A DNA stretch of 64,000 bases, taken from a virus. Its lineage: Duplodnaviria > Caudoviricetes. Below, piece by piece: positions 3,772-56,060 of this stretch. The notes under the pieces were generated by a model. The model worked only from the letters and a program-made list of their open reading frames with translations. It searched no databases and was not told the DNA's origin. The DNA is taken from positions 1 through 64,000 of IMG/VR virus record IMGVR_UViG_3300013121_000038. One strand, written 5' to 3'. Numbering within the stretch: the first letter of the stretch is position 1; each line of letters starts with the position of its first letter. A program made the translations under genes and the position numbers.

Positions 3772-3819
3772 TAAAAGCAGGACGGCGGAGGAGGGCTGAC
3801 CCATCTCCGCCGCCTGCTT
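3772..3819 (-). terminator. Hairpin followed by TTTT on the minus strand, upstream of the helicase (terminator or attenuator)
   Basis: AAGCAGG(A)CGGCGGAG...CTCCGCCGCCTGCTT inverted repeat; the minus strand continues TTTTAG. Confidence 0.5.
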
Positions 3820-3904
3820 ATGTCCGAAATCATCGACGAGCTTGCTTCATGGTGGCCTCAACGCGAGTGTCCCACCATGAACGACACGCGTGAGTACGGT
3901 CAAG

Positions 3905-4210
3905 CTACAAGCCAGGGATCCCATCGGTTGGGGTCGCGATGGGTGCCGGACCACCACCTGTAGACGTGCCCTCCTCGAAGACCTCGGCGGCGACGTCGTT
4001 CTCGATGGACTCCATGAGCGCGTCGAGGCGCTTCAGGGTCTCCGGGCTCCAGCCGTTGAGCTTGTTCATCGAGCCGTAGCGCCGGCCGTTCTTCGTGTCG
4101 GCGTACCCAGCGACCACGCGGAGATGGACGTCCGGGTACGCCAAGACCTCGATGTAGATCTCGCCCAGGAAGATGGCGTCGAACTTCGGCTTGCCGAGAA
4201 CCGTCCTCAT
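3905..4210 (-). CDS. Hypothetical protein
   Basis: Likely start MRTVLG at 4210, with ATGA overlap on the upstream stop. Confidence 0.7.
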   Translation of the reverse strand: MRTVLGKPKFDAIFLGEIYIEVLAYPDVHLRVVAGYADTKNGRRYGSMNKLNGWSPETLKRLDALMESIENDVAAEVFEEGTSTGGGPAPIATPTDGIPGL

Positions 4211-4551
4211 GACTTGAGCTTCTCGTACTCGGCCCGGCCCAGCTCTTGCTGCTGCTTGCAGTACTCGCGGGACCACATGCCGATGGTCTGGACCACCTGG
4301 TGGATGGTCGCGTCGTCCTGGTTGCAGGAGATCGAGAGCGTCACCGAGGTGCTCACCCCGTTGCCGAAGTTCTCCTTGAAGCTCAGGTCCGTCGTGACCG
4401 CGACTCGGAACTGCGCATCTCCCATCACCTGCTTGCTGAAGTCGGCCATCTCTTTTGGTACCTCTCCGTCGTGGTTGGAAGTGAACACCTGCCCGTTGAG
4501 CATGATGTCGATCCTGCCGGTGATCTTAGGCAGGCGTAGATGCAACTCCAT
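4207..4551 (-). CDS. Hypothetical protein
   Basis: 114 aa ORF with GGAGG RBS, in operon. Confidence 0.75.
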   Translation of the reverse strand: MELHLRLPKITGRIDIMLNGQVFTSNHDGEVPKEMADFSKQVMGDAQFRVAVTTDLSFKENFGNGVSTSVTLSISCNQDDATIHQVVQTIGMWSREYCKQQQELGRAEYEKLKS

Positions 4552-4750
4552 GGGCCTCCTCCTCGCCCTTGTTCATGTGGTTCTTGCACTCCAGACACGT
4601 CGCCTTGTCCGCCCACTCCTCGGAGTAGAAGTCGATGGGCGGAATGAGTCCTCCGTTGTCGAGGGCGATGCACGTGGTGCCGCACCACATCGTCCAGACT
4701 GGTTCGTGAGGAGGGCTCTTGGCTTCGTTGATGATGTGGAAGGGCCCCAT
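4526..4750 (-). CDS. Small Cys-containing hypothetical protein
   Basis: MGPFHIINE...WCG...CLEC; fills the gap in the operon, with AGGAG upstream. Confidence 0.6.
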   Translation of the reverse strand: MGPFHIINEAKSPPHEPVWTMWCGTTCIALDNGGLIPPIDFYSEEWADKATCLECKNHMNKGEEEAHGVASTPA

Positions 4751-4752
4751 GG

Positions 4753-4974
4753 CTACTTCTCCTTCACTGGCTCGATGTTCTGGAGCCTGAAGATGTCCCA
4801 CCACTTGTTGCCGCAGTCGCTGCACGTGTTCCGGTAGGAGATGATGTTGCCGTCGGCGATCTCCTTGCCATCGAGACCGTAGGAGAAGCCTCCGCAGTAG
4901 GGGCACTTCCCCTCGGTCTTGTACTGACGTCGTGCCTGGGCGGTGAAGTCGCCCTTCTTGGTGAGGGCCGGCAT
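4753..4974 (-). CDS. Small zinc-ribbon protein
   Basis: CPYCG...CSDCG. Confidence 0.7.
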   Translation of the reverse strand: MPALTKKGDFTAQARRQYKTEGKCPYCGGFSYGLDGKEIADGNIISYRNTCSDCGNKWWDIFRLQNIEPVKEK

Positions 4975-4977
4975 GAG

Positions 4978-6554: not shown

Positions 6555-6556
6555 GG

Positions 6557-7075
6557 CTACCTCTTGATGTCAGCGATGATCGGTCCGGTTGGGACGACGA
6601 TCCTCGACTGCTTCCGGCGCTTGCCCTCCAGGAAGCCGAGGAGAGCGCGGCAGTACCTGAGCTGCGTGCCGAAGTCGCACCAGTCGAAGAAGAAGGCCAT
6701 CGCCGGCTTCACCTCGACGACGCCGGACTCCATGAAGTCGAAGTCCGCGAGCTGGAGCTGGACTCCGTACTGCCCGGTCTCTCTGTTCTGGAACGGGAGG
6801 CGGGAGAAGCGCTTCGGGTTCCTCAGCGAGATGAAGGGCGCGTGCTGGAAGATGGAGGCGTGGCTCTCCCCGTCCATGTAGTCCTTGTGGTCGTAGACCT
6901 CGCCGATGAGCATCTCGGTGTCGGTGAGAGCGACGCAGGCGAGAGAGGCCGTCTCGACACCGAGCCCGGCCAGCTTCTCGTGGACCTGGGCCAGCATGGC
7001 AGCGGCGGCGATCTCTTCGTTACTCGTCGAGGTTGGGTCTGGCTGGGAGTTCTGCGAAGGCTCCTGCGTAGGCAT
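6557..7075 (-). CDS. Hypothetical protein
   Basis: Start MPTQEP at 7075 preceded by AGGAG; overlaps the 3' end of the SF2 helicase gene. Confidence 0.65.
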   Translation of the reverse strand: MPTQEPSQNSQPDPTSTSNEEIAAAAMLAQVHEKLAGLGVETASLACVALTDTEMLIGEVYDHKDYMDGESHASIFQHAPFISLRNPKRFSRLPFQNRETGQYGVQLQLADFDFMESGVVEVKPAMAFFFDWCDFGTQLRYCRALLGFLEGKRRKQSRIVVPTGPIIADIKR

Positions 7076-8474
7076 TGGCGATCTCCTGAGAAACGTATGT
7101 GGGGTACGGGTACGGTGGGTTGGTTTCCAGCTCGAAGCCCCAGGCTCTGAGGTTGGCCCTGAGGCGGTGGCATAGCGCACGAAGAGGGCCAACGTGGAAG
7201 TCCTCGAAGACCACCATCACTGGGGACTGCTTGTTGGGATGGAGCCTCTGGATGCGGCCCATCGACTGCTGAAGGGAGTTCTTCGACCTGAAGGGCGTCA
7301 GCCAGAAGAGTGTGTCGAGAGCTGAGTCGTCTACTCCCTCGCTGCCGAGCTTGGCGATCGCGAAGACGATCTGATTCGACCTAAGAATCGAAGTTCGCTC
7401 TTCCTTCGGAGTGGCCCCAAGGATGAGACCAGACTGTGGGAAGATGGCGTGGAAGAGCTTGAGCTGATCCTTCGAGTGGGACAGGCACAGGATCTTCCGT
7501 CCCTGAATCAGAGCGTCCTGGATGGCGTAGTAGCGGTAGATGTTGCCAGGTGTGTCTCTTCCGAGGAGCGTCCGCAGCATCGAGATGTTGATGGTGCCGC
7601 CTTTCATCTTGCAGACGCTGAAGTCGAACTTCGTCGGTGTCCTCCAGAAGTAGATGCGAGGTACCAGGTCCTGGGAGAGATCGGTGTAGAAGGGCTCGCC
7701 CAGGTGGTAGCGGTAGATGGGGTCGAGGCCGTCTTCCCGCTGGACCGTGGCGGTGAGACCGATGCGGTTTCCGTAGAACGGCTCGGCGCAAAGCGAGAAG
7801 ACCGGAGCGCCGAGTCGGTGGACCTCGTCGTAGATGATGAGGCCGAAGCGACGGAAGAACTCTTCCGGGATCTTCCTGTCCCGGATCTTGAGAGCCAAGG
7901 TCGAGATGAGAGCGAGGACGATCGGCTCCTGCCACTCGAACTGCGGACCCTGGATGAGACCGAGGCTGCCATGGAATCTCAGGCCGACGGGAGTCCTGTC
8001 GCTGCCTAGGATGGCTTCCTGCCACTGCGTGAGGATGCCGCCGTCGGGGACGATGACGAGAGTCGGCACCTTCATCTGGGCGATCTTCTTGACCGCCAGC
8101 TTCGTCTTCCCCTTCCCGCATCCTAGGTTGAGGATGCCGTTGTCGTTGGCTGCGAAGGCGGCCCACGCTCTCTTCTGCTCTTCGTCCCTTGGAACGACGC
8201 AGTCCTCGAACTCGATGTGATCGAACCGAGGGCTAAGATCGACGAAGGGAAAGCGGTAGTGGGGGTACTGAGAGGACGGCAGGAACTCCCGAGGGCAGAC
8301 GATGTGGTGAGCCGCATCGTTCCACAGCCTAAGAAGTTCCTGCCCATCCTTCCCAGCCACGAGAAACTCCAGGGCTCGCTGGACCTGGCTCGTGCGCACA
8401 GCGGCCTTGGGCAGCCAGAGACGATTGCCGACGTACGCCTTGTCTGGCTCTTTCGGAACGAACTGGAGCGTCAT
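7020..8474 (-). CDS. Superfamily 2 DExH helicase
   Basis: GCGKGKT, IIYDEVH, GLTAT, EGVD, QSMGRIQR. Confidence 0.9.
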   Translation of the reverse strand: MTLQFVPKEPDKAYVGNRLWLPKAAVRTSQVQRALEFLVAGKDGQELLRLWNDAAHHIVCPREFLPSSQYPHYRFPFVDLSPRFDHIEFEDCVVPRDEEQKRAWAAFAANDNGILNLGCGKGKTKLAVKKIAQMKVPTLVIVPDGGILTQWQEAILGSDRTPVGLRFHGSLGLIQGPQFEWQEPIVLALISTLALKIRDRKIPEEFFRRFGLIIYDEVHRLGAPVFSLCAEPFYGNRIGLTATVQREDGLDPIYRYHLGEPFYTDLSQDLVPRIYFWRTPTKFDFSVCKMKGGTINISMLRTLLGRDTPGNIYRYYAIQDALIQGRKILCLSHSKDQLKLFHAIFPQSGLILGATPKEERTSILRSNQIVFAIAKLGSEGVDDSALDTLFWLTPFRSKNSLQQSMGRIQRLHPNKQSPVMVVFEDFHVGPLRALCHRLRANLRAWGFELETNPPYPYPTYVSQEIANAYAGAFAELPARPNLDE

Positions 8475-8513
8475 GCTCTCCTCATGCCCGAGGCTTCTAT
8501 CACGAGGGACCGA

Positions 8514-9173
8514 CTATGGATGCGGTGTCACGTCCACCGTCTGCTGCGAAGCAGGTGGCATAGGCGGCGAGAAGACCATCTGCCGCAGGAGCCACCACGA
8601 GAACTGGAGAGCGGCGCCACCGAGATGCCGACCGAACTCGATCCTGGCTCTCCGCCCGAAGCTCTCACCGGGCTGCTGCGGATGGATCACCGCCGGCACA
8701 TTCCAGATGGCGGCTGCTCCAGGGTCCTGGTAGTAGCCGAGGTAGCCGAGCTGGGAGAACCCCAGAGATGAGGGCACCGGGAAGTGGATCGGGGACCACG
8801 GAGCCACGGCGTGCATCGGTACTGGTTGCTGAGGCATCTGCTGAGGCATCGGCGCTTGCTGCACCGGCACTCGGAAGACGTTGGGGGCCGGCTGTGGAGG
8901 ATTCCACGGGGGTGGTCTCCACTGCGGTTGCTGCGGCTGCGTCTGCACCATCATTGGCGGGGGAACCGGGATGAACGGCGCCGGCGCTGGCATCCCGGGG
9001 TAGAACTGCGCCGGCTGGACAGTCGCTGCCGGCGGAGCGTACTGAGGAAACGAAGACATCCTGATGACCTCTTGTCGGCATTGGTTGTTGAAACTACACG
9101 CGATACATCTTGGGGACTCGTTGTCGTACCCTCTTCCAAAGCACGAGGGCGGTGCATACGGGCTCAAGAACAC
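8514..9173 (-). CDS. Pro/Gln-rich protein with N-terminal 4-Cys motif
   Basis: CFG...CIACSFNNQC then a P/Q low-complexity region; GTG start with AAGGAG RBS. Confidence 0.7.
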   Translation of the reverse strand: MFLSPYAPPSCFGRGYDNESPRCIACSFNNQCRQEVIRMSSFPQYAPPAATVQPAQFYPGMPAPAPFIPVPPPMMVQTQPQQPQWRPPPWNPPQPAPNVFRVPVQQAPMPQQMPQQPVPMHAVAPWSPIHFPVPSSLGFSQLGYLGYYQDPGAAAIWNVPAVIHPQQPGESFGRRARIEFGRHLGGAALQFSWWLLRQMVFSPPMPPASQQTVDVTPHP

Positions 9174-9206
9174 GGCCCTCTTCTCCTTGCGCTAAGAGTT
9201 CTCTAC

Positions 9207-9217
9207 GTTCTTATGCC
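9207..9217 (-). promoter_or_regulatory. Putative phage-specific early promoter GGCATAAGAAC
   Basis: Identical 11-mer at 18081-18091; lies ahead of the replication operon. Confidence 0.65.
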
Positions 9218-9253
9218 AAAGAGCTGAGCCACCTTGCTCAGCCTCCATTCTCG

Positions 9254-9283
9254 TTGCCACTCCAGACTCACATGCCCTACACT
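9254..9283 (+). promoter_or_regulatory. Sigma70-like promoter TTGCCA-N18-TACACT
   Basis: -35/-10 match upstream of the first plus-strand gene; the same pattern occurs at three other sites. Confidence 0.6.
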
Positions 9284-9316
9284 CCCGAAAACGAAGGGTC
9301 TCCCCACACTTAGGAG

Positions 9317-12780: not shown

Positions 12781-14940
12781 GTGTCATACGACAACCTTTC
12801 CCTCGGCTACGGCGGCGTCTCGCGCTTCGCGGGACAGCGCGGCCGTACCCAGGACGGCACCAACCGTTCTGGCGTGAGGTATCCGTCTCCCTTCTTCGAC
12901 ATCGCGCACACCTATCTGCCGCCGTCGATGAAGGCGCTGCTGCGGTGGTGCCGGTACTACTACCTCGTCAACCCGCTCATCAACACGGTCATCCACAAGA
13001 TGTCCGAGTACCCGGTGACGGAGATCATCATCGACGAGCAGGACCAGAGGATCAGGGAGAAGTGGGAGACGGTTCTCGGGCAGCACCTGCGGTACCGCGC
13101 GTTCCAGATCGAGGTCGGCCTCGACTACTACACGTACGGCATCTGCATGGTGACGATCCACTTCCCGTTCACCAAGTACCTCATCTGCAAGCAGTGCAAG
13201 CACAAGGAGAAGGCTGCCAAGGTCCACTACAAGTGGCGCAACCTGGAGTACGTCGGCACCTGCGACAAGTGCGGTACGACCGGCCCGCAGACGGTGCTCG
13301 ACTTCTACGAACGCGACCTGCGCCGCATCCGTCTCATGCGGTGGAACCCCGAGTACATCAACGTGGACCCGGGGTTCGGCGGAGCCGACCCCATCTACAC
13401 CTTCGAGCTGCCTCTCCAGCTCAAGAACGACCTCATCCTCGGCAAGAAGACGGTGCTCGACACCGTGCCGGACATCTTCGTCGAGGCCCTGCGGCGCAAC
13501 AAGTACATCCGCTTCGCCGACGACAACATCTTCGTCTTCCGCCGCCCCATCATCAGCCAGAAGGACAATGGCTGGGGCATGCCGCTCATCTTCCCGGTCC
13601 TGAAGGATGCCTTCTACCTCCAGGTCCTGAGGAAGGCGCAGGAGGCCATCGCTCAGGAGCACATCATCCCGCTCCGCGTCCTCTTCCCTCAGGCCGGCTC
13701 GGCGACCTCAGACCCGTACACCAACATCGACCTCAACGCCTGGAAGAGCCGCATCGAGGGCGAGATCGCCAAGTGGAAGTACGACAACAACTACATCCCC
13801 ATCCTGCCGGTCCCCATCGGCAACGAGACCATCGGCGGGGATGGGAAGGCTCTCGGCCTCTACCAGGAGATGCAGGTCTGGTCAGACCAGATCATCAACG
13901 GCATGGGCGTGCCGCTGGAGTTCGTGAAGGGCGGCCTCCAGTACTCGGGCTCGAACGTCTCGATGCGCATGCTGGAGAACATGTTCATCGGATACCGCCT
14001 CGATCACGAGAACATGCTGAACAACTTCGTCATCCGTCGCATCGCCAACTTCATGCAGTGGCCAGTCGTCAAGGCTCACATGAAGCGGTTCAAGATGGCG
14101 GACGACCTCCAGCGTTCGGCCTTCTACTTCCAGCTCAACCAGGCGCAGAAGATGTCCGACCAGACGCTCATGGCGGAGGTCGACCAGGACTCGGCGGTGG
14201 AGGATGAGCGCAAGAAGCTGGAGCTCGACAAGCAGCTCGAAGCGATGCGCAAGCAGCAGCTCGCTCAGGCCGCCATTCAGGGCGAGGTCATGCTCGTTCA
14301 GAGTCGCTACCAGGCCAAGGCCCAGGAAGCGATGATGAAGAACCAGGCGGCGCTCCAGGAGGCCCAAGGTGGTCAGATGGGCGGAGCTGGCATGCTGGGC
14401 CCGGACCAGATGGCAGGAGCCGGTGCCGGCGGCGGAGCAGGCGGCATTCCGCAGGACATGCTTGGCGCTCCTGGTGGGCAGCCTGGTGGTGGGGCTCAGC
14501 CAGGCGCTGGTGCTGAAGGACCTCCTGGCATGCAGGGTCAGCCGACTCCTGGCGCCGGGCAAGAAGGCGAGATGATCGACGGCCAGAGCGTCGATCCGTC
14601 CATGCCAGAGGGCTCTACCGTCTCTCCAGAGAACGCTCAGCAGGCTCCTGGCGACGGCATCCCCGCCACAGCGGCGTCCCCTCTCCAGATGGGCCAGAAG
14701 GGCGGCGGCTACAACCTGCTCTACCTGGCGAAGAGGGCGGCGAACGCGCTCAAGAAGATGGAGCCGATGCAGGCCAACATGGAGCTCAACCGCATGCGGA
14801 TGGGCAATCCTGGCCTCGGCAACCTCGTCCTCCAGATCATGCAGAAGGAGCGCGGCTCGCAGAAGGATCCGCTCAACCCGATGCAGAGCCCGCAGCCTCA
14901 GCAGAAGCCCACTCGCCGTAAGTCTTCGACTGGGGTGTGA
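12781..14940 (+). CDS. Probable portal protein with Zn-ribbon insert and G/Q/P-rich tail
   Basis: Portal-like order of elements: NPLINTVI..MSEYP, WGMPLI, IINGMGVPLEF..GGL.YSG, then coiled coil. Inference from pattern. Confidence 0.7.
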   Translation: MSYDNLSLGYGGVSRFAGQRGRTQDGTNRSGVRYPSPFFDIAHTYLPPSMKALLRWCRYYYLVNPLINTVIHKMSEYPVTEIIIDEQDQRIREKWETVLGQHLRYRAFQIEVGLDYYTYGICMVTIHFPFTKYLICKQCKHKEKAAKVHYKWRNLEYVGTCDKCGTTGPQTVLDFYERDLRRIRLMRWNPEYINVDPGFGGADPIYTFELPLQLKNDLILGKKTVLDTVPDIFVEALRRNKYIRFADDNIFVFRRPIISQKDNGWGMPLIFPVLKDAFYLQVLRKAQEAIAQEHIIPLRVLFPQAGSATSDPYTNIDLNAWKSRIEGEIAKWKYDNNYIPILPVPIGNETIGGDGKALGLYQEMQVWSDQIINGMGVPLEFVKGGLQYSGSNVSMRMLENMFIGYRLDHENMLNNFVIRRIANFMQWPVVKAHMKRFKMADDLQRSAFYFQLNQAQKMSDQTLMAEVDQDSAVEDERKKLELDKQLEAMRKQQLAQAAIQGEVMLVQSRYQAKAQEAMMKNQAALQEAQGGQMGGAGMLGPDQMAGAGAGGGAGGIPQDMLGAPGGQPGGGAQPGAGAEGPPGMQGQPTPGAGQEGEMIDGQSVDPSMPEGSTVSPENAQQAPGDGIPATAASPLQMGQKGGGYNLLYLAKRAANALKKMEPMQANMELNRMRMGNPGLGNLVLQIMQKERGSQKDPLNPMQSPQPQQKPTRRKSSTGV

Positions 14941-16612: not shown

Positions 16613-16620
16613 CGGGCTAA

Positions 16621-16643
16621 GAGAACGGGCGAGGCCCGTTCTC
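16621..16643. terminator. Hairpin between convergent genes
   Basis: GAGAACGGGC-GAG-GCCCGTTCTC, perfect 10-bp stem. Confidence 0.65.
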
Positions 16644-18035: not shown

Positions 18036-18080
18036 CTTTTCTCTCCTTGAGCGGGTAAAGAGACGAATGATTCGTCCACT

Positions 18081-18091
18081 GTTCTTATGCC
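18081..18091 (-). promoter_or_regulatory. Putative phage-specific early promoter GGCATAAGAAC
   Basis: Identical to 9207-9217; heads a minus-strand island. Confidence 0.65.
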
Positions 18092-18111
18092 TCAGATCTG
18101 ACAAGCGTTTC

Positions 18112-18140
18112 TTGCCACGTTTCGGCACCACTTGTATCCT
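18112..18140 (+). promoter_or_regulatory. Sigma70-like promoter TTGCCA-N17-TATCCT upstream of the RNAP gene
   Basis: -35/-10 with canonical spacing. Confidence 0.6.
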
Positions 18141-18208
18141 CGGCTCGTCGTACCAAAGGCCCAGAGACCTCCGAGTGCAAGGGGATAGGGTCGCAGGCCA
18201 TACGCACC

Positions 18209-21200
18209 ATGCACAGTGCGAGGATGAGGCAGCCGGTGCCCAGCGACGCCAAGATGGGTGTTCTCATCGAGAACTCCATCAACAAGATCAAGGAGCTGTT
18301 TGCTGACGGCTACCTTGGCAGCTCGCAGCGTTCCCTTCGGCTGAAGGATGTCTGGGCCGAGGATGAGCTGCACTCCAGCGATGTGCAGGGCCAGCTCCAC
18401 GCCAAGCTCAACGATCAGACGTGGGGAGTGCCCATCAAGGCCACCATCGAGCTGATGGACCATCAGACCGGCAAGCCGATCGGCAAGCCGTCGACGGTCA
18501 CACTCATGCGGTTGCCGAAGCTGACGGACCGTTTCTCCTTCATCATCGACGGCGGGGAGTATCAAGTCGACCACCTTCTTCGTCTTCGATCTGGTGTGTA
18601 CACCCGCATCAAGAGGAACGGCGACCTCGTCTCCGAGTTCAACCTCGCGCGAGGCGGCAACAAGAACTTCGGGCTCTACCTCGACCGCAAGAAGAGCCTC
18701 GTCAACTTCCAGCCCAAGTCCTCCGAGGCCAAGGTCCCAGCCTACCCTCTGCTGAAGGTGATGGGCGTCTCGGACGAAGCCATCGAGCAGAGCTGGGGCA
18801 AGGCCGTCTTCGCTGCCAACCGGATCACGAACCCGGAAGCGGAAGAGAAGGTCCTTCGGCGCTTCTACGAGAAGACTGGCGGCAAGGACCTGGGACGCGC
18901 TCCCTCTCTGGAAGAGGTGAAGCAGCACGTCTACAGCTACTTCGACGATACTGCGCTCCGCCCTGAGACGACGAAGGTCACTCTCGGCAAGCCGTTCACC
19001 AAGGTGACCGGAGACGCGCTCTTGTCGGCGTCTTCCAAGCTCATCAAGTTGGAGAAGAAGGAAGTCGATGCAGATGATCGCGACTCCCTCATCTTCAAGG
19101 ACATCGTCCACATCGAAGACTTCATACCGGAGCGTCTCGGCAAGAGCCGTGGCCAGATCAAGCAGAAGGTCCGGAACGCGATCAACAACAAGACCAGCAT
19201 CTCCGAGATTCTCCAGGGTGGTGACATCTTCAAGCGTCCGATCGCCGACTTCTTCATGAAGGGTGGCAACGTCTCGGAGCGTGGGGACCAGACCAACCCT
19301 GTGCAGATGCTCTCAGGCAACTTCAAGACGACCCTCGTCGCCAAGGACTACGGCGGCATCAAGGACGCCGAGAAGCTGGGCGACGAGATGCGCGCCATCA
19401 ACCCCAGCCACTTCGGGTTCCTCGATCCGATGCACACGCCGGAGTCAGAGCGCACCGGCATCACCCTGCACCTCGGCTCAGGTGTCGTGAAGGACGGCAA
19501 CGAGCTGAAGACCCACGTCTACAACCTGAAGACCGGCAGGAACGAGTTGGTGCCGGTGCAGGACTTCCACGAGAAGACGGTCGTCCTCGCCGATCAGATC
19601 TCGTGGAAGAACGGCAAGCCGGTGCCTCATGCTGAGACGGTCAAGGTCAAGCTGCCTGGTGGCGACATCGGAATGCGAGCGATGTCAGAGGCCCACTACG
19701 TCATGCCGACGGCGAAGTCCATGTTCTCATGGGCCTCGAACCTGATTCCGTTCCTCCAGAACGATCAGGGCAACCGAGCCTCGATGGCGGACAAGCAGAT
19801 CGAGCAGGCCATCTCGCTGAAGTACCGAGAGGCGCCACTGGTCCAGTCCTCCGTCCACCAGGACAACCCCGAGTACACCTTCGAGAAGCACCTGGGGAAG
19901 AACATCGCTTCGCACAAGGCCCCAGTCGCCGGCGAGGTGGTGAAGGTCACGCCTGATGAGATCCACATCAAGAACGGCAAGGAGACACACAAGGTCCAGC
20001 TCTACAATCATTTCCCGCTGAACGATCCTGCGGCGATGCTGCACTCGACGGTGCTCGTGAAGCCTGGGGACCAGGTCAAGGCGAATCAGGTCTTGGCTGA
20101 CTCCAACTTCTCGAAGAACGGAACCCTGGCGCTCGGCACCAACCTGCGAGTCGGCTACATCCCGTACAAGGGCTACAACTTCGAGGACGGCATCGTCATT
20201 TCGGAGGGTGCATCGCAGCGGCTCACGTCGGAGCACCTGCACAAGCTGAAGCTCGACATCGACACGAAGATCGATCGGACCAGCAAGGCCTCCTGGAAGG
20301 CCCACTCGTCCCGGAAGGCCGCAGGTCTGGGCAAGGATCAGTGGGATGCGCTCGACGATGACGGAGTCGTGCGTGAGGGGACCGTCGTCCGGCCTGGGCA
20401 GATCCTCGTCACTGCCCTCACCCCCAACGTCCAGAAGAGCGACGTCCGCGCCAAGGCCTTCGGTCCGTCTCGTGCTGGCAAGGCCTGGAGAGACAAGTCT
20501 CTGACCTGGGACTCCGACTACGTCGGCACAGTGGCGCGCGTGGTGAAGTCGCCGAATGGCGGCGTCGTCCACGTCCATATCAAGACCGAGGAGCCGGCTG
20601 AGATCGGCGACAAGCTCTCAGGCCGACACGGCAACAAGGGCATCATCACCAAGATCCTGAAGAACGAGGAGATGCCGTTCACCGTCGATGCGGCGACGGG
20701 AGAGAGACGGCACATGGACGTGCTACTCAACCCATCAGGCATCCCGACCCGCATCAACCCTGGCCAGGTGCTGGAGACAGCCGCTGCGAAGATCGCTGAG
20801 AAGACTGGGAAGCCGTACTTCGTGAACAACTTCACCGGCGCTGGCCATGACTACCGCCAGATGGTGGTGGACGACCTCAAGAAGCATGGCCTCACCGACG
20901 AGGAGCTGGTCTACGACCCATCGGACGTCCGCAAGCCGCTCGGTTCGGTTCTCGTAGGCCCGCAGCACCTGCTGAAGCTGAAGCATCAGGTCGAGAAGAA
21001 GCTGGTCGTCCGTGGCGGCGAGTCAGACCTCGAAGGCCGGCAGTACGGATACGACTACGACATGCAGCCCTACAAGGGCGGAGCGCATGGCGGACAGGGC
21101 TTCGGCGCTCTGGAGCTCTACTCGCTCCTCGGCCACAACGCCCGCCACAACCTGCGCGAGATGTCGACCTACAAGTCCGACATGCAGGGCCCAGACTTCT

Positions 21201-24200
21201 GGGCGCTCATCCACGAAGGCCGTCAGCCTCGCCCGCCCAAGATCCCGTTCAGCTACCAGAAGTTCGAGGGCTTGCTGAAGGGTCTCGGCGTCGACGTCCG
21301 CAAGGAGGGCACCAACCTTCGCATGGTGCCGATGACGGACAAGGAGACGCTCAAGCTCTGCGGCGATGGGAAGAACGAGATCACCCAGCCGAAGCTCCTC
21401 ATGTCGAAGGGCTTCAAGGAAGAGAAGGGCGGCTTCTTCGATCCACAGGCCACCGGAGGGCTTGGTGGCACGAAGTGGGCACATCTCAAGCTCACCGAAC
21501 CGATGCCGAACCCAGTCTTCGTCGGTGAGAAGCAGAGCAAGGGACCGATCCCAGCTCTTCTCTCCCTGAACCATGGTGACATCGCCGTCCAAGACATCGA
21601 CGCCATCATGGCCGGCAAGAAGACTCTCAATGGCAAGATCGGCGGAGCTGCCATCCACGACGCGCTGAAGGCCATCAACGTCGACGAGGCCATCAAGCAC
21701 GTCAGGATCGATCTCGCAGCGAAGAGAGGGTCGAAGAAGGATCAGCTCCATCGAACTCTGAAGTACCTGCTCGCGTTGAAGGATCTGGGCCTCAAGCCTC
21801 ATGAGGCCTATGTCATGAACCACCTGCCGGTACTGCCCCCAGTCTTCCGTCCTCTGACACTCACCTCACGCGGCAACGTGGCCGGCTCCAAGCTGAACGA
21901 CCTCTACCACACGCTCGCCATCAACAACGACGAGCTGCGGAAGATGGACCCGAACCGCTTCGGTCCAGAGATCGGCAACGAGCTTCGAGACAAGACCTGG
22001 AACTCCTTGAAGGCTCTTCAGTCCGTCGGCGACTACAAGTCTGGTTTCGACGAGACGACGCATGAGCCTCGGGCGTTCAAGGGCCTCATCGACATGATCG
22101 GTGGTGGTGAGGGAGAGCAGCCGAAGCAGGGCTACTTCCAGGAGCACCTCATCAAGAGGAAGCAGGACCTCTCCATCCGCTCTACCATCGTGCCGGAGCC
22201 GACTCTGCACATCGACGAGGTCGGTGTTCCGCTCCGCGCCGCCATGGAGCTCTACAAGCCATTCGTCATCGGCAAGCTCCACTCGAAGTACAGCTACCGT
22301 CCTGGCGAGGCCATGGACGAGCTGAAGACCTTCTCGGATCGGTCGAAGGCTGTCCTCCAGGAGGTCATGAACGAGAGGCCGCTGCTGCTCAAGCGCGACC
22401 CGTCGCTGCACAAGTTCAACGTGATGGCGTTCCGCCCCAAGATCGTGGAGGGCAAGGCCATCAAGATCCACCCTCTCGTCTGCGGCGGCTTCAACGCTGA
22501 CTTCGACGGCGACACCATGGCCGGCACCATCCCCGTGTCGCAGGCTGCTGTCGAAGAGGCAATGAAGATGTTCCCGTCGAAGAACCTCTTCTCGCCGGCA
22601 TCGTATCGGGCGATGCACATTCCCAACCAAGAGTTCCTGCTCGGGCTCAATCTCGCAACGCAGTGGGGGAAGAAGACCGACCATTCCTTCGCGACGCTGA
22701 AGGAACTGAAGAAGGCCCATGAGAACCACAAGATCGGGCTCACGGACGTCGTCTCCCTGGGCGGCAAGCCGACCACCGTCGGACGCGCCTTGATCGTTGA
22801 GGGCCTGCCTGCTGCGTCAGCGCACGTCAAGCCGATCCTCAACGACCCGAAGTTCGTTATCACCGCCGGCGTGCTGCGTGACATCGTCGGCGGTATCTCG
22901 AAGAACCATCCGGAGAAGTTCGACCAGGTCGTGAACCACTTGAAGGATGTCGGTGTGGATCAGTCCTTCAAGGAAGGGTTCTCGCTTGGGCTCAAGGACT
23001 TCGCTACTCTTCCGGAGCGTGATCGCATCCTCGCCGCCGCCAAGAAGGAAGCCGACCATGTTCACCGCACCGTCAAGGACGCGACGGAGCGCGACGCCAA
23101 GCTCGTGTCCTTGTGGACCAAGGCCACCAAGGCACTCGACGACGCTTCAGAGGCCAGATTCACCACCCCAGGAGCCTCCAACCGTCTCGCTCAGATGGTG
23201 TACTCCGGATCTCGCGGTAAGAAGGAACAGCTTCGTCAGATGGTATCCGCGCCCATCCTCGTGCAGGATGCCACTGGCCGCACGCTGCCGAACCCTGTCA
23301 CCAGGTCCTATGGTGAGGGCCTAGACCTCGGCGACTACTGGCTCAGCCAGCACGGCGCGCGCAAGGGGACGCTGAACCGTGCATCCGGTACTCGCGAGCC
23401 TGGTGCGATGACGAAGGACATCATCAACAGCACCATCTCCACTCTCATCACCAGCAACGACTGCAAGACGAACCACGGCATCTCGATGTCGTTGGACCCG
23501 AAGGATCCGTACCACGGCGACATCTACGACCGCTTCCTCGCCAAGGACCATGGGCCGTACAAGGCTGGCGAACTCATCACTCCTGCTGTCGTCGACCATC
23601 TCAGGAAGACGGTCGGGAAGGATGCCAAGATCCAGGTCCGGTCCCCTCTCAAGTGCCAGCACGGCAGCGGCATCTGCGCCAAGTGCTTCGGGCTGAACGA
23701 GAACGGGACTCTGCATCCGATGGGCACCAACATCGGCGTCTTGGCCGGCCAGTCTCTTGGCGAGCCGGCCACGCAACTCGCCATGGATGCGTTCCATACA
23801 GGCGGCGTCGCTTCTGGAGCTGGCGGGTCTTCGGTTTCCCGCATCGAGCGCTTGAAGCAGCTTCTCAAGATGCCGAAGACGTTGAAGGGGTCTGCAATCC
23901 TCGCCAAGACGGACGGCCCGGTCACCTCCATCAAGCCGCACCACCTCGGTGGTCATCTCGTGACGATCGGCGGCATCGATCATCATGTTCGTGAAGGCGA
24001 GATCAACCCGGCGCTCAAGATCGGCTCGAACGTGCGACGTGGTGCGTCGCTCTCCAACGATCTCGCCCCAGTCCACCCGAAGGAGCTTCTGCATGTCACG
24101 AAGGACATGCACGAGGTCCAGCGCTACCTGGTCGATGAGCTCTACACGAAGCTCTACAAGGACGAGCATGTCCGGCCCAGGAACATCGAGCTTGTGGTTC

Positions 24201-24556
24201 GCTCCCTCACCAACCTGACTCGCGTGAAGGACCCGGGGCATTCCCACTGGGAGATGCACGATGTGGTGCCTCACTCCGAGGTGGAGGAGTTCAACCGCGA
24301 GCACAAGGGTCAGAAGAACTTCAAGCCCATCATCCACGAGCCGATTCTCAAGGGGTCCGGTGAGATCCCACGCCACACCGAGGACTGGATGTCTCGTCTC
24401 AACTACCAGCGGCTTGGTGAGACGATCCAGCGCGGCGCTGCCATGGCATGGAAGAGCGACATCCATGGCACGCACCCCATCCCAGGCATCGCCTACGGCG
24501 CCGAGTTCGGCCCGCACCCAACCACGCCGCCAGGCAAGAAGCCGTACGTCTACTAG
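18209..24556 (+). CDS. rpoBC: Single-chain DNA-directed RNA polymerase, beta-beta' fusion (true start may be 18224 or 18254)
   Basis: Beta motifs: HTPE, LIPFLQND, GYNFEDGI, GDKLSGRHGNKG, LNPSGIPTRINPGQ, GGQGFGALE. Beta' motifs: LPVLPPVFRP, NADFDGD (22493-22513), HGARKG, RSPLKC...CAKCFG, GEPATQL. All lie in one uninterrupted frame. Confidence 0.97.
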   Translation: MHSARMRQPVPSDAKMGVLIENSINKIKELFADGYLGSSQRSLRLKDVWAEDELHSSDVQGQLHAKLNDQTWGVPIKATIELMDHQTGKPIGKPSTVTLMRLPKLTDRFSFIIDGGEYQVDHLLRLRSGVYTRIKRNGDLVSEFNLARGGNKNFGLYLDRKKSLVNFQPKSSEAKVPAYPLLKVMGVSDEAIEQSWGKAVFAANRITNPEAEEKVLRRFYEKTGGKDLGRAPSLEEVKQHVYSYFDDTALRPETTKVTLGKPFTKVTGDALLSASSKLIKLEKKEVDADDRDSLIFKDIVHIEDFIPERLGKSRGQIKQKVRNAINNKTSISEILQGGDIFKRPIADFFMKGGNVSERGDQTNPVQMLSGNFKTTLVAKDYGGIKDAEKLGDEMRAINPSHFGFLDPMHTPESERTGITLHLGSGVVKDGNELKTHVYNLKTGRNELVPVQDFHEKTVVLADQISWKNGKPVPHAETVKVKLPGGDIGMRAMSEAHYVMPTAKSMFSWASNLIPFLQNDQGNRASMADKQIEQAISLKYREAPLVQSSVHQDNPEYTFEKHLGKNIASHKAPVAGEVVKVTPDEIHIKNGKETHKVQLYNHFPLNDPAAMLHSTVLVKPGDQVKANQVLADSNFSKNGTLALGTNLRVGYIPYKGYNFEDGIVISEGASQRLTSEHLHKLKLDIDTKIDRTSKASWKAHSSRKAAGLGKDQWDALDDDGVVREGTVVRPGQILVTALTPNVQKSDVRAKAFGPSRAGKAWRDKSLTWDSDYVGTVARVVKSPNGGVVHVHIKTEEPAEIGDKLSGRHGNKGIITKILKNEEMPFTVDAATGERRHMDVLLNPSGIPTRINPGQVLETAAAKIAEKTGKPYFVNNFTGAGHDYRQMVVDDLKKHGLTDEELVYDPSDVRKPLGSVLVGPQHLLKLKHQVEKKLVVRGGESDLEGRQYGYDYDMQPYKGGAHGGQGFGALELYSLLGHNARHNLREMSTYKSDMQGPDFWALIHEGRQPRPPKIPFSYQKFEGLLKGLGVDVRKEGTNLRMVPMTDKETLKLCGDGKNEITQPKLLMSKGFKEEKGGFFDPQATGGLGGTKWAHLKLTEPMPNPVFVGEKQSKGPIPALLSLNHGDIAVQDIDAIMAGKKTLNGKIGGAAIHDALKAINVDEAIKHVRIDLAAKRGSKKDQLHRTLKYLLALKDLGLKPHEAYVMNHLPVLPPVFRPLTLTSRGNVAGSKLNDLYHTLAINNDELRKMDPNRFGPEIGNELRDKTWNSLKALQSVGDYKSGFDETTHEPRAFKGLIDMIGGGEGEQPKQGYFQEHLIKRKQDLSIRSTIVPEPTLHIDEVGVPLRAAMELYKPFVIGKLHSKYSYRPGEAMDELKTFSDRSKAVLQEVMNERPLLLKRDPSLHKFNVMAFRPKIVEGKAIKIHPLVCGGFNADFDGDTMAGTIPVSQAAVEEAMKMFPSKNLFSPASYRAMHIPNQEFLLGLNLATQWGKKTDHSFATLKELKKAHENHKIGLTDVVSLGGKPTTVGRALIVEGLPAASAHVKPILNDPKFVITAGVLRDIVGGISKNHPEKFDQVVNHLKDVGVDQSFKEGFSLGLKDFATLPERDRILAAAKKEADHVHRTVKDATERDAKLVSLWTKATKALDDASEARFTTPGASNRLAQMVYSGSRGKKEQLRQMVSAPILVQDATGRTLPNPVTRSYGEGLDLGDYWLSQHGARKGTLNRASGTREPGAMTKDIINSTISTLITSNDCKTNHGISMSLDPKDPYHGDIYDRFLAKDHGPYKAGELITPAVVDHLRKTVGKDAKIQVRSPLKCQHGSGICAKCFGLNENGTLHPMGTNIGVLAGQSLGEPATQLAMDAFHTGGVASGAGGSSVSRIERLKQLLKMPKTLKGSAILAKTDGPVTSIKPHHLGGHLVTIGGIDHHVREGEINPALKIGSNVRRGASLSNDLAPVHPKELLHVTKDMHEVQRYLVDELYTKLYKDEHVRPRNIELVVRSLTNLTRVKDPGHSHWEMHDVVPHSEVEEFNREHKGQKNFKPIIHEPILKGSGEIPRHTEDWMSRLNYQRLGETIQRGAAMAWKSDIHGTHPIPGIAYGAEFGPHPTTPPGKKPYVY

Positions 24557-32673: not shown

Positions 32674-32684
32674 ACTCTTATCCC
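32674..32684 (-). promoter_or_regulatory. Putative early promoter GGGATAAGAGT
   Basis: Matches GG[CG]ATAAGA, immediately before the RBS of RNase HII. Confidence 0.55.
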
Positions 32685-33017
32685 TCAAGGGCTCTCGTTC
32701 TTGGGGTGACCGAGCCTTTCCCTTAAATGAGCGTCCGTGGTGAAGCCCTTCACGAAGGTCTGCTTTGATAAGGGATGAGTCGTCTCCATCAGCTCGACCC
32801 TGCCGCTCAGGGTGGTGCGGTTCTTCCCAGCCCACTTCTGGAACAGGTTCCAGACCTGGACCGCTTGGTTCATGGGGATTGGCTCGGGCCATTTCACCGA
32901 GACGGTGTACACGAGCGCGTTGACGGTGCTCTCGGCGTCTGCGACGATGCTTTGGTCGAGAGCGAGTCCAGTCGAGTCGCAAAAGGAACGAAGCCAGGCA
33001 AGGCCGGGCGGGGTCAT
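32685..33017 (-). CDS. Hypothetical protein
   Basis: 110 aa ORF filling the gap. Confidence 0.55.
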   Translation of the reverse strand: MTPPGLAWLRSFCDSTGLALDQSIVADAESTVNALVYTVSVKWPEPIPMNQAVQVWNLFQKWAGKNRTTLSGRVELMETTHPLSKQTFVKGFTTDAHLRERLGHPKNESP

Positions 33018-34836: not shown

Positions 34837-34855
34837 GAAAGAGCGCAGGAATGCA

Positions 34856-35280: not shown

Positions 35281-35337
35281 TTGGCTGATTCTCCCATGGG
35301 TTGAAGAGAAACGAAGACCGAAAGTCTTCATCTCATT

Positions 35338-35348
35338 CTTCTTATCCC
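35338..35348 (-). promoter_or_regulatory. Putative early promoter GGGATAAGAAG
   Basis: Matches the motif but overlaps the TAA stop of the upstream gene. Confidence 0.5.
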
Positions 35349-36028
35349 AAGGAAGGGCGACCTTTTGCAGAGAGACGCCTGAGGATGTCCTCACTCGGCG
35401 ACAGAAGCATCATCGACTTGCCGCCGCCGAGCTCCACCCAGGCGACGATGACGGACCTGATCTCCTTCATGCTGATTCGCAGTCGATCGTGGAGCTGTTG
35501 GAGACTCAGGCTGGTAGAGAAGCCTGCCATTCCTTCGACCGAGCGGATCTGCGCCATACAGAGCTCGTAGAACGGGCGCCATGCATCCGTTGCAGAGACG
35601 AAGGAGCCGACGATGTCGAAGAAGACCTCATCCATCTTCTCGTACATGTCTGCCCACATGTTCATCTCATCGACGCTCCAGGTGTTGGCCGTCATGGCGC
35701 GTTCTGCCGCAGCGATCAGACCGGCGGCTTCCTCTCTGGAAGGGCGAAGTGGGACAGCCCCGATACCTGTCGCACGTTTCAGCACTGCGAGGCCCATCTC
35801 CAGCCTCTGCACCCGAGCCGCGAGTTGGTAGAACGTCTTCCTGTTCATCGCTGGCAAGTCAACGCCGATCTCAGTGCGAAGAGCTTCGACGTCGGACTTG
35901 GGGATGACGGTTGATCGGCCTTCCCTCTCACGGCGAAGCATGCCGTTCTTGAGGTAGGTGACGACGGTCCTCTTGGACCGCTTCAACATCTTCGCTGCGG
36001 TGCTGATAGAGACGAAATCGCTTCCCAT
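35342..36028 (-). CDS. HTH (excisionase/MerR-like) DNA-binding protein
   Basis: SISTAAKMLKRSKRTVVTYLKNGML...IPKSDVE. Confidence 0.75.
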   Translation of the reverse strand: MGSDFVSISTAAKMLKRSKRTVVTYLKNGMLRREREGRSTVIPKSDVEALRTEIGVDLPAMNRKTFYQLAARVQRLEMGLAVLKRATGIGAVPLRPSREEAAGLIAAAERAMTANTWSVDEMNMWADMYEKMDEVFFDIVGSFVSATDAWRPFYELCMAQIRSVEGMAGFSTSLSLQQLHDRLRISMKEIRSVIVAWVELGGGKSMMLLSPSEDILRRLSAKGRPSLG

Positions 36029-36057
36029 TTCAGGTGCCTCCCTCTTACGCTAGGCAC
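36022..36057. promoter_or_regulatory. Overlapping divergent promoters with an inverted repeat
   Basis: Plus strand TTCCCA-N18-TACGCT (36022-36051); minus strand GCGTAAGAGG (36041-36050); GTGCCT-N12-AGGCAC (36034-36057). Confidence 0.5.
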
Positions 36058-50426: not shown

Positions 50427-50458
50427 CTCCCTCAGAAGCAAGTTGAAAGGGGCACAAG

Positions 50459-53782: not shown

Positions 53783-53795
53783 GAAGGAGCTGTCC

Positions 53796-54551
53796 ATGGC
53801 GCTCACGCAGCGAGCCACCATCATGATCGCGAACCTCGCCAAGCGTGGCGATTCGTTCGCGCGCAACATCCTCTTCAAGTCGACGTACAAGGACCAGATG
53901 CTGATCTCCAGCCTGGCCAAGCGCGGCGACCACCAGGCGAGACGCCACGTTCTCGGCACCAACGCTCCGGTGATGGCGAAGGCCCTCGTGAACCGGCTCG
54001 CCAAGGCCGGCGAGTGCATCGCCCAGGGCCTCAACTCCATCACCGTCGACAAGAACCCGCAGGTGATCACCTTCGCCCAGCCGGCCAACCGCACCTTCGG
54101 CAGTGCGCCGGCGGCGCTCGTCGCCAGCAGCGACTCCGGGCTGACGGTGACCTTCGCCGTGGTCAGCGGCCCAGCCACGGTCAGCGGCAACGTGCTGACC
54201 CTGACCGGCGCTGGTGACGTGGTGGTGCGCGCCTCTCAGGTGGGCGATCCCAACACGGCTGCTGCCACGCCGGTCACGCGGACCATCACCATCGACAAGG
54301 CCGATCAGGTCATCACCTTCGACGCGCCGGCCAGCGTGGAGCAGGCCGACTCCCCGGTCACCCTCGTCGCCACCTCGACGTCTGGCCTCGCGGTCGCCTT
54401 CGCTGTGCAGAGCGGCCCAGGCACCGTCGACGGGGACGAGCTCACCATCACCGCCGGCACTGGCACCATCGTGGTCCGTGCCACGCAGGCGGGCGACGAC
54501 AACTACAACGCCGCCACCCCGGTCGACGAGTCCATCGACGTCACCGGGTAA
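53796..54551 (+). CDS. Virion protein with 3x LAK[RA]G[DE] repeats and two Ig-like domains
   Basis: Two QVITF...SGL.V.FAV.SGP.TV.G..LT repeats. Confidence 0.75.
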   Translation: MALTQRATIMIANLAKRGDSFARNILFKSTYKDQMLISSLAKRGDHQARRHVLGTNAPVMAKALVNRLAKAGECIAQGLNSITVDKNPQVITFAQPANRTFGSAPAALVASSDSGLTVTFAVVSGPATVSGNVLTLTGAGDVVVRASQVGDPNTAAATPVTRTITIDKADQVITFDAPASVEQADSPVTLVATSTSGLAVAFAVQSGPGTVDGDELTITAGTGTIVVRATQAGDDNYNAATPVDESIDVTG

Positions 54552-54566
54552 GAAGGGAGCTCTTCC

Positions 54567-55286
54567 ATGGCAACGATCACGAACTGGCAGCCCTACGTGC
54601 AGAAGGTGGACAACTCGTCCGCCCTCGGCGAGGGCCGCTTCGCCTCCGGCGCGCTGACGATGATCGCGGCAGGGCCCCCAAGGCTCTCCGCTGTCGGCGG
54701 CGCCGCCGGCGCAGCGCAGTCCATCGGCAACCAGAACTGGGCCCTGCCCATCGGCATCGTCCAGAACTTCAACCTGGCCCACAACAAGAGCTTCGCTCGC
54801 TTCTGGGAGCTCGGGTCGGAGCGGAGCTACTTCATCGCGGGGCGCACGGTGGCGCAGGCCGGCTTCGGCCGCGTGCTCTACAACGGCCCCTCGATCCTCC
54901 GCATGATGTACTCGTTCTACGACGACGCGGTGGCGCCGACGCTGGTGCCCACCTTCGGCGTGGACCCAAACATCTCCAAGTCGGTGGCGAACCAGCACGA
55001 CGTGAAGATCCCGCCTGGGTTCGAGAACATCTACCTCAACCTGGCCTCGGACCTCTTCTCGCAGCCGTGCGGCCTCCTCGTCTACATGAAGGACTCCAAC
55101 GAGGAGACGCTCACCGCCTTCTACCTGGAGGAGACGTACATCCCCTCCCACTCCATCGCCACCGACGCGCAGGGCGTCGTGGTGCAGGAGCAGGTGGCTC
55201 TCCAGCCAGAGCGCGTGGTGCCCATCGCCGTGGCGCAGCTCGCTCTCATCGCCGAGAACCAGGAAGTCGCTGCTCAGCTCGGGTAG
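54567..55286 (+). CDS. Probable tail tube protein
   Basis: PIGIVQNFNL...RFWELGSERSYFIAGR; follows the sheath; strong codon bias. Confidence 0.7.
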   Translation: MATITNWQPYVQKVDNSSALGEGRFASGALTMIAAGPPRLSAVGGAAGAAQSIGNQNWALPIGIVQNFNLAHNKSFARFWELGSERSYFIAGRTVAQAGFGRVLYNGPSILRMMYSFYDDAVAPTLVPTFGVDPNISKSVANQHDVKIPPGFENIYLNLASDLFSQPCGLLVYMKDSNEETLTAFYLEETYIPSHSIATDAQGVVVQEQVALQPERVVPIAVAQLALIAENQEVAAQLG

Positions 55287-55318
55287 CTCCCGCCCGCCCA
55301 CACTGCCAGGCAGGAGCG

Positions 55319-55360
55319 CGAAGGCCGGACCTCTGGGTGAGGGCCCGGCCTTCGTCTTTC
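55319..55360 (+). terminator. Rho-independent terminator
   Basis: CGAAGGCCGG...CCGGCCTTCG followed by TCTTTC. Confidence 0.65.
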
Positions 55361-55454
55361 TCGGTGCTGTGGAACCCGTCTGGCGCTGTTTCATGAGCCA
55401 ACTGGGAGCCGTCGCAGGATCTCCCTGCGCACCATGGCGCCTGACGGAACTGGC

Positions 55455-55991
55455 CTACGCCTGGCCCGCCTGCTTCATGACCTCCTGGACCGCCGCCGGC
55501 GTGAACGGGAGCGGGGCGGGGGCGGGGCCTGGCGCCGGCGCGGGGGCAGGAGCGGGCGCCGTCTGGGTGGTGGGGGCCGGGGCCGCCTGCTTCTGGGCCT
55601 GCTGCGTGGGCGTCGCCGTGGCCTTCTTCTCCGCCACCGGGAAGGTGGTCTCGCGCCAGGTCTTCATGGAGCCGATGGTGGCGAGGAGCTCGGTGTCGAA
55701 GGCGGTGATGAGGGTGGGGTTGTGCTGGCCCTGGTTGTTGCCGGCGAGCTTCTCGCGGGCGTTGACGAGAGCCTCCACCTGCTTGCGCAGCTCGTAGATG
55801 TCGTAGGAGACGCTGGTCTGACCGGAGCCCTCCTGCGCCTGGTAGCCGACTCCGACCTCGGCCTTGTTGTTGCCCCTCGTCTTCGAGATGGCCATCTCGG
55901 CGGCGACGACGGCCTTGTTCGCAGCCTTGGTTGCCTTCGTTGCAGAGCGCTTCGCCTTGATGGCTGAGCGGTCGTAGACTCCACGTGGCAT
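55455..55991 (-). CDS. Basic K/A-rich protein with PA-rich tail
   Basis: Start MPRGVYDRS at 55991; variant motif GGTGGTAAGAAG at 56032-56043. Confidence 0.7.
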   Translation of the reverse strand: MPRGVYDRSAIKAKRSATKATKAANKAVVAAEMAISKTRGNNKAEVGVGYQAQEGSGQTSVSYDIYELRKQVEALVNAREKLAGNNQGQHNPTLITAFDTELLATIGSMKTWRETTFPVAEKKATATPTQQAQKQAAPAPTTQTAPAPAPAPAPGPAPAPLPFTPAAVQEVMKQAGQA

Positions 55992-56060
55992 CGGGTCTTC
56001 CTTTCGCGTCTTGGGTGAGAGACGACTTCTTCTTCTTACCACCTCATGTGTGAAAAGCAA

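Follow-up and report, generated by a model that had tools for sequence, protein, structure and literature searches.

The stretch analysed here, called the window, comprises the first 64 kb (64,000 nucleotides, nt) of a single viral contig of 102,311 bp (IMG/VR record IMGVR_UViG_3300013121_000038; Duplodnaviria, Caudoviricetes), which has a guanine-plus-cytosine (GC) content of about 63% and was classed as linear and approximately 55% complete. A gene for a single-chain RNA polymerase shares the plus strand with virion genes, and blocks of minus-strand genes are preceded by the word GGSATAAGA, which a preliminary description had proposed to be a promoter. That the motif is real and a promoter is strongly supported by its strand bias, intergenic position, fixed distance to start codons, occurrence in divergent gaps and conservation in relatives. 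Judged by its layout, the ATAAG word is the -10-like half of a bipartite, extended -10 promoter of the sigma70-family type in which G replaces T at position -7; this promoter is referred to as class A.

A home-made codon-bias caller placed 148 genes on the contig. In the window, the plus strand encodes the polymerase, the portal (12781-14940), the large terminase (33034-34836) and spike-like, protease-like and sheath-like proteins. The minus strand encodes replication proteins, namely a primase (1255-2334), a DnaB-like helicase (2337-3746), an SF2 helicase (7020-8474) and a polymerase-like open reading frame (ORF), as well as RNase HII (31998-32657; Pfam match at 2.7e-27) and a helix-turn-helix (HTH) protein (35342-36028). 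Past the window, the contig continues with approximately 28 kb of small minus-strand genes. The main genome used for comparison, G001, is a complete 209-kb relative with terminal repeats that is collinear with the window and whose polymerase is 67% identical; its positions are cited as G001rc coordinates. Coding sequence occupies 88-91% of the DNA in the contig and in G001.

Seven minus-strand words had been listed in the preliminary description, and all seven were found on that strand where they had been placed. GGSATAAGA occurs four times in the window, always on the minus strand (shuffled sequence held a mean of 0.32 matches, and none of 100 shuffles reached four), and 10 of its 11 occurrences across the contig are on the minus strand, in agreement with the strand specificity that had been claimed. 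The GGS prefix is present on 11 of the 14 ATAAGA hexamers in the contig. The shorter word ATAAG is found 23 times on the minus strand versus 3 times on the plus strand, and 13 of these 23 minus-strand copies have GCAA exactly 19 nt upstream; others have TCAA, CCAA or GAAA there, and two have GCAA one base further out. Thus, the word recognized earlier is genuine but is only the -10-like half of the motif, the upstream GMAA and an invariant G having been missed.

A matrix seeded on exact matches from the contig and G001 converged on 53 sites with the consensus rGMAA, 16 free bases and G-N-S-ATAAG-R. All 20 contig sites are on the minus strand and 32 of the 33 G001 sites are on the equivalent strand, so that 52 of the 53 lie opposite the polymerase gene; 49 of the 53 are intergenic. 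A genome-wide scan for just these two biases had been suggested as a check, and both are borne out. Most sites lie 40-60 nt ahead of the next start codon. Matrix scores fall into two groups in the contig: 20 matches, every one of them on the minus strand, reach 14 or more, and no plus-strand match does; one further match scores 11.9 and the rest stay below 8. The pattern GMAA-N16-GNNATAAG gave 0 forward and 15 reverse matches in the contig, 18 forward and 0 reverse in G001, and 6 forward and 0 reverse in the relative G005, while its reversed controls gave 0 matches in every record; the window holds 3 matches versus 0.01 expected. Two other words were examined and set aside. The single plus-strand copy of GGGATAAGA (contig 64924) has no upstream element and directly adjoins a start codon, and GTATCCTC was rejected as a general motif.

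Five class A sites lie in the window, designated here by the position of the first A of ATAAG, and all five have a counterpart ahead of the orthologous G001 gene in which the core words are kept and the spacers differ. The site at 9214 (9209..9237, minus; score 29.0) is an exact bipartite match in a divergent gap, with a predicted +1 at approximately 9203; it precedes the ORF at 8514-9173 and the helicase/polymerase-like block, and its counterpart is at G001rc 171369. The site at 35345 (35340..35368, minus; score 29.4; predicted +1 approximately 35334) precedes the ORF at 34897-35280 and corresponds to G001rc 196047; the TAA inside its ATAAG (35342-35344) is the stop codon of the HTH gene. The site at 18088 (18083..18111, minus; score 23.6; predicted +1 approximately 18077) has GAAA as its -35-like element and diverges from the RNA polymerase gene. 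At 32681 (32676..32704, minus; score 20.2), the -35-like element is a weak CCAA and the predicted +1, at approximately 32670, is 13 nt ahead of the RNase HII start; the counterpart at G001rc 193331 likewise has a weak CCAA and lies 19 nt from its start codon. The 3' end of the ORF at 32685-33017, including its TGA stop (32685-32687), falls within this site. Finally, the site at 3821 (3816..3845, minus; score 16.9; predicted +1 approximately 3810) has its -35-like GCAA one base further out, leaving a 20-nt gap, and precedes the DnaB-like helicase/primase operon; its counterpart at G001rc 166416 is ahead of the orthologous helicase, at a distance of 69 nt compared with 70 nt in the window.

These sites lie 19-70 nt from minus-strand start codons, with the GTG at 9173 counted as the start for site 9214, in keeping with the 12-70 nt given previously. 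Two looser minus-strand variants that had been counted with the motif proved not to be members. The word at 36041..36050 has a best matrix score of -6.5 and no -35-like element at the required distance, and the orthologous gap in G001 has no such word; the best score for the word at 56032..56043 is -3.2.

Conservation was assessed in relatives found by profile searches of viral contigs; single-protein searches of viral contigs and of genome contigs had not found them, and a megablast of 20 kb against cultured phages gave no match. Among 79 polymerase-centred IMG/VR loci (1.79 Mb; GC 35-68%), matrix matches antisense to the polymerase gene numbered 116 versus 13 in the sense orientation, compared with 12 and 11 for a reversed-matrix control. 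A site divergent from the polymerase gene is found 115-250 nt ahead of it in 37 of 78 loci, and L001, a 9.6-kb metagenome contig with a polymerase gene, also carries a site beside that gene. In the contig itself, six divergent gaps lead into a minus-strand block, and four of them carry a site; because no upstream transcript of the same strand enters such gaps, a start signal is needed there. Since the motif departs from the bacterial consensus, yet is kept across phages of 35-68% GC, a reader borne by the lineage is the best explanation for its conservation.

The geometry of class A was defined by taking the first A of ATAAG as -11, which places the invariant G at -14 and the hexamer S-A-T-A-A-G at -12 to -7. 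The -35-like GMAA is 19 nt upstream of ATAAG, corresponding to an 18-bp spacer before the SATAAG hexamer, and the spacer columns are nearly information-free both in the 53 sites and in 110 sites from relatives, as in sigma70-type promoters with a free spacer of fixed length. A is present at -11 in 52 of 53 sites. G, and not the canonical T, occupies -7 in 53 of 53 sites and in 108 of the 110 sites from relatives, while G at -14 is found in 53 of 53 and 110 of 110 sites, although the matrix partly selects for this G. In the 110 relatives' sites, at positions that the matrix does not select, the predicted -1 is T in 49% and the predicted +1 is a purine in 86% (G in 60%), which suggests where transcription may start. 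The earlier statement that the motif is not a sigma70 consensus is therefore true of its letters but not of its geometry, which is that of an extended -10 promoter. Such geometry makes a sigma factor the likely reader.

A stem-loop begins at position 1 or 2 of the predicted transcript in 76-78% of sites, compared with 39% of random positions, and the stem-loop sequences differ between orthologous sites. In the window, minus-strand examples are found at 18062..18076 (transcript positions 2-16 of site 18088; fold and inverted repeat), 35308..35334 (positions 1-27 of site 35345; minimum free energy -14.5 kcal/mol, z -3.1) and 3785..3810 (positions 1-26 of site 3821; minimum free energy -16.6 kcal/mol, z -2.3). 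The simplest reading of this feature is a 5'-terminal stem-loop that probably protects the transcript. At site 3821, the stem-loop is followed by a T-run and TTAGC, giving it a terminator-like appearance, and the same order is kept at G001rc 166416; this hairpin may be an attenuator or a mere 5' stabiliser. Across the contig, a GC-rich hairpin followed by a short T-run and YTTAGM occurs in 24 intergenic copies on the minus strand versus 1 on the plus strand, mostly right after minus-strand genes (minus-strand copies at 3770-3778, 16616-16621, 17341-17346, 34832-34837 and 56248-56253, with 18 further in the contig). It may be a terminator signature of the class A transcription system.

Two class A sites beyond the window have distinctive surroundings. 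The site at contig 73948 is followed by a hairpin, a Shine-Dalgarno sequence and the ATG of an uncalled frame (contig 73298-73977). An 800-nt gene-free gap (contig 84957-85756) contains at least four copies of CTTGACG, several of them approximately 17 nt from CGTCAAG, and these operator-like or origin-like palindromes stand just upstream of the class A site at 85004. No tRNAs were found in the window.

The genes that might supply the reader were examined in the contig and its relatives. The polymerase (18236..24556, plus; 2106 amino acids) is a fused, single-chain beta-beta' enzyme with matches to Pfam Rpb2_6 (5.5e-55), Rpb1_2 (2e-28) and Rpb1_5 (1.3e-21) and to PHROG polymerase subunits; its frame is open from 18071, with possible starts at 18209 and 18236. 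It is the only gene per genome with a beta' domain in the five genomes compared. Its clamp-helix region aligns with bacterial beta' residues 173-425, and in bacteria the beta' clamp helices are the main docking site for sigma. In the database search with this protein, more than 7,800 of 8,000 scored proteins passed an E-value of 0.001, many of which may be cellular beta or beta' subunits; the top 120 show 45-70% identity, and a relative is encoded on 285 viral-contig stretches. Several relatives' polymerases (P0009, P0013, P0035, P0082 and others) are 2400-3400 amino acids long and contain intein/LAGLIDADG endonuclease domains (PF14890, PF14528, PF05204).

The cultured Salmonella phage Arash (OQ632216.1) and Vibrio phages D69, D148 and D181 have a related transcription apparatus: a bacterial-type polymerase that is approximately 30% identical and a homologue of this lineage's sigma factor. 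The annotation of Arash gives beta and beta' a gene each, whereas they are fused here. Purified Arash virions hold beta, beta' and sigma, with beta yielding the most spectra, and the paper describes no promoter, the word itself being absent from it (PMC10585845). In the Arash genome, GGTATAAGR, which is the core word with T at -12, occurs 13 times antisense versus once sense to the polymerase gene. T at -12 is also what the AT-rich members of the lineage have. The full bipartite pattern is at chance level, with 2 matches in Arash and 1 in D69, which implies that the upstream element of Arash differs or is absent.

The sigma family was reached only via Arash gp10 and a profile, as Pfam Sigma70_r2 and Sigma70_r4 gave no match in the contig or its relatives. 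Arash gp10, annotated as a sigma factor, matches Sigma70_r3 at 9e-9, and G001, G002, G004 and G005 have one gp10 homologue apiece, without exception on the strand of the polymerase gene. The sigma gene of the closest complete relative lies at L090:7649-8536 (minus strand). Against solved structures, the family profile matched RpoS and SigA with E-values of approximately 3e-9 over regions 2-3, SigF at 1e-5 over its whole length and FliA at 8e-4 over regions 3-4. On these matches, the relatives' protein is a true sigma factor with the parts for -10, extended -10 and -35 contacts. It co-occurs with the fused polymerase, as single copies on the same strand, in every sufficiently complete relative. 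Downstream of its promoter divergent from the polymerase gene, G001 also has a 109-amino-acid ORF (G001:C1:30882-31067, plus) with a weak match to region 4 of the sigma profile (E 0.0017), whose product may be a small regulator or resemble an anti-sigma factor.

A second, host-like promoter class, class B, was found on the plus strand by a consensus scan. A candidate for the polymerase gene (18112..18140, plus) consists of TTGCCA, 17 nt and TATCCT; it stands back to back with class A site 18088 and is kept with a different spacer in G001 (G001rc 179342) and L001. Another candidate (9254..9283, plus; TTGCCA, 18 nt, TACACT) precedes the plus-strand structural block that begins at 9326 and is kept with a different spacer at G001rc 171404. 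TTGCCA-N17/18-TANNNT has three matches in the contig, the third at 78165; all are plus-strand and intergenic, and each stands back to back with a class A site in the same divergent gap. G001 retains two of them. Of 36 relatives, 23 have the more general TTGNNN-N17/18-TANNNT at a constant offset ahead of the polymerase gene, and in many of these the class B TTGC and the class A GCAA are one and the same set of four base pairs. When k-mers were searched for a common plus-strand (late) motif, nothing emerged except the ATAAG word in reverse complement. The word TGTATCCTCG is found at 18133-18142 (plus), approximately 100 nt before the polymerase gene, is kept in G001 (G001rc 179364) and L001, and recurs at G001rc 119451 before a plus-strand gene approximately 2 kb upstream of the sigma gene. 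Because it contains the class B -10-like TATCCT and recurs near the sigma gene, it hints at co-regulation of polymerase and sigma. Taken by position, the polymerase and virion genes appear to be on host-like promoters and the non-structural genes on private class A promoters, a division that makes sense if the polymerase is a virion protein.

Class A can be compared with several known transcription systems. It resembles the bacterial extended -10 promoter (TGnTATAAT with or without TTGACA) in its free 18-bp spacer, G at -14, A at -11, T-A-A core and a pyrimidine/purine signal 6 nt after the hexamer, and the lineage encodes a sigma factor with regions 2, 3 and 4. It differs in having G for T at -7, S for T at -12 and rGMAA for TTGACA, and the proposed core enzyme, a phage single-chain beta-beta' protein without alpha, differs from the bacterial holoenzyme. 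The letters ATAAG also recall baculovirus late promoters, in which a virus polymerase with beta/beta'-like subunits starts inside the TAAG of a DTAAG initiator that has no fixed upstream element. In contrast, class A has a -35-like element at a fixed distance, G at -14 and its predicted start signal 6 nt downstream; a baculovirus-type initiator therefore does not fit, and the likeness is probably coincidental.

The proposed logic of class A is closer to that of coliphage N4. The injected virion polymerase of N4 reads private early promoters (PMC4496689). Late (virion) genes of N4 are left to the host sigma70 holoenzyme at host-like promoters. The N4 enzyme is a single-subunit, T7-like polymerase that reads DNA hairpins, unlike the two-barrel, bacterial-type enzyme considered here, with its sigma factor and a bipartite promoter of the duplex type. 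A hairpin promoter of the N4 type was rejected because class A promoter DNA (-30 to +5) has no hairpin tendency, folding worse than random 36-mers (-2.37 vs -3.63 kcal/mol), and because the hairpin is downstream, in the transcript. Phages phiKZ and AR9 encode relatives of beta/beta', use a virion form of the enzyme on their early genes and have private promoters that are short (PMC7598289, PMC5449584). Their enzymes comprise 4-5 polypeptides in two sets with no sigma homologue (PMC7824862, PMC13282480). A system of that type was also rejected, given one fused 2106-amino-acid enzyme per genome and a true sigma homologue in the relatives. According to two reviews, multisubunit polymerases of phages come without a sigma factor, and phages that encode sigma have no polymerase of their own (PMC7824862, PMC13282480). 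Literature searches for the ATAAG word with phage promoters returned nothing relevant. To our knowledge, a transcription system composed of a sigma factor and a single-chain polymerase has never been studied at the bench.

Several other explanations for the motif were weighed. A compositional artefact, in which TAA words are merely confined to the non-coding DNA of a GC-rich genome, would draw on the rarity of the TAA stop codon in coding DNA of 63% GC. It has essentially no standing, having already been refuted by the strand and spacing statistics: composition cannot produce a 23:3 strand bias for ATAAG, the invariant G that precedes it by three bases, a GMAA placed precisely 19 nt upstream, zero matches in reversed controls, or positional conservation in relatives. 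The motif might instead act in RNA, as a processing site or 5'-untranslated-region element of longer transcripts and not as a start signal. Many sites do lie between co-directional genes, 3' of terminator-like hairpins and ahead of a stem-loop, and two overlap the end of the upstream gene. This explanation is nonetheless very improbable, as a pair of short elements set at a constant distance across a spacer of free sequence is the usual mark of protein-DNA recognition, five of the 20 contig sites have an opposite-strand upstream neighbour and so no upstream transcript of the same strand, the T/purine signal falls at the predicted start, and no Rfam family matched anywhere in the contig.

The remaining alternatives accept class A as a promoter and assign it to a host enzyme. 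It could be read by a host holoenzyme, for example with a sigma-28-like alternative sigma factor. The sigma-28 (FliA) consensus is TAAA, 15 nt and GCCGATAA, which puts TAAA 19 nt before ATAA. This spacing equals that of GMAA and ATAAG, and the ATAA core is shared, although the resemblance is to the consensus only and the upstream element (GMAA) and the letters before ATAA differ. The phage sigma profile matches RpoS/SigA better than FliA. A host reader of this kind is improbable because the motif is kept in relatives of 35-68% GC, hence with very different hosts, because G at -7 and -14 is invariant (53/53 and 108-110/110 sites), and because a phage that hung its replication genes on a non-essential host sigma would be fragile. 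A somewhat better case, though still an unlikely one, can be made for recognition of the motif by the phage sigma in partnership with the host core, which it would bring to the site in the manner of T4 gp55 and SPO1 gp28, with the beta-beta' enzyme acting elsewhere. The protein is a normal member of the sigma70 family, phage sigmas of this family use the host core (PMC13282480), and no encoded alpha subunit was found, which leaves a free-standing phage core hypothetical. Against this stand the strict co-occurrence of sigma and the fused polymerase in the relatives, the presence of both in Arash virions, the clamp helices retained by the polymerase, and the breadth of the lineage, in which the sigma factor would have to suit many different host cores.

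The preferred explanation, considered probable on the sequence evidence, is that class A is a private promoter read by the lineage's sigma factor together with the phage single-chain beta-beta' polymerase, and used early by way of virion delivery. Sigma bound to the polymerase would recognise rGMAA, the 18-bp spacer and G(-14) N S(-12) A T A A G(-7), and transcription would begin at a purine 6 nt after G(-7), yielding a transcript that presents a stem-loop, then a Shine-Dalgarno site and then the start codon. Class A would mark the non-structural units (replication genes, RNase HII and many small genes) on the strand opposite the polymerase and virion genes; sigma and polymerase, probably delivered with the virion, would turn these units on first. 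Reading by the phage polymerase and early timing had both been part of the preliminary description, and both are suggested by genome logic and by the virion proteome of a distant cultured relative. A fuller model is offered more tentatively. In it, a self-contained beta-beta' enzyme without alpha would be packed into the virion together with sigma and, once injected, fire approximately 20-30 private promoters, and the host holoenzyme would serve the polymerase, sigma and virion genes at host-like promoters. As the back-to-back promoters share or abut -35 base pairs at several divergent gaps, the two enzymes could exclude each other there, forming a built-in early/late switch.

A number of observations weigh against this explanation. 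Virion packaging is known only from a relative whose polymerase is approximately 30% identical, an alpha subunit was not detectable, and the sigma gene is absent from this contig of about 55% completeness, so that its presence in this phage is deduced from synteny with G001, which places it in the approximately 100 kb missing from the contig. By mean folding energy, the first 42 nt of the predicted transcripts are no more stable than random genomic 42-mers. The polymerase and structural genes are devoid of the motif and have host-like promoters, which means that the phage polymerase does not transcribe everything. The main uncertainty concerns the assignment of enzymes to promoter classes: the best matches of the sigma factor are of the housekeeping type, for which the usual -10 element has T at -7, and it could therefore read the host-like class, so that the assignment could in principle be reversed.

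The motif provides a sharply defined promoter with which the system can be tested, and it predicts that G at -7 and G at -14 are essential, that the spacer measures 18 bp and that transcription starts 6 nt after the word. Used for annotation, the matrix picks out non-structural transcription units across hundreds of genomes of uncultured phages. If the proposed reader is confirmed, it would constitute a compact, orthogonal set of sigma factor, polymerase and promoter for synthetic biology, and it would reveal how a sigma pocket was retuned from T to G at -7 and in what way a bacterial-type core functions without alpha. Contrary to the generalization in the reviews, this lineage has both a polymerase of the bacterial type and a sigma factor, and it is widespread.

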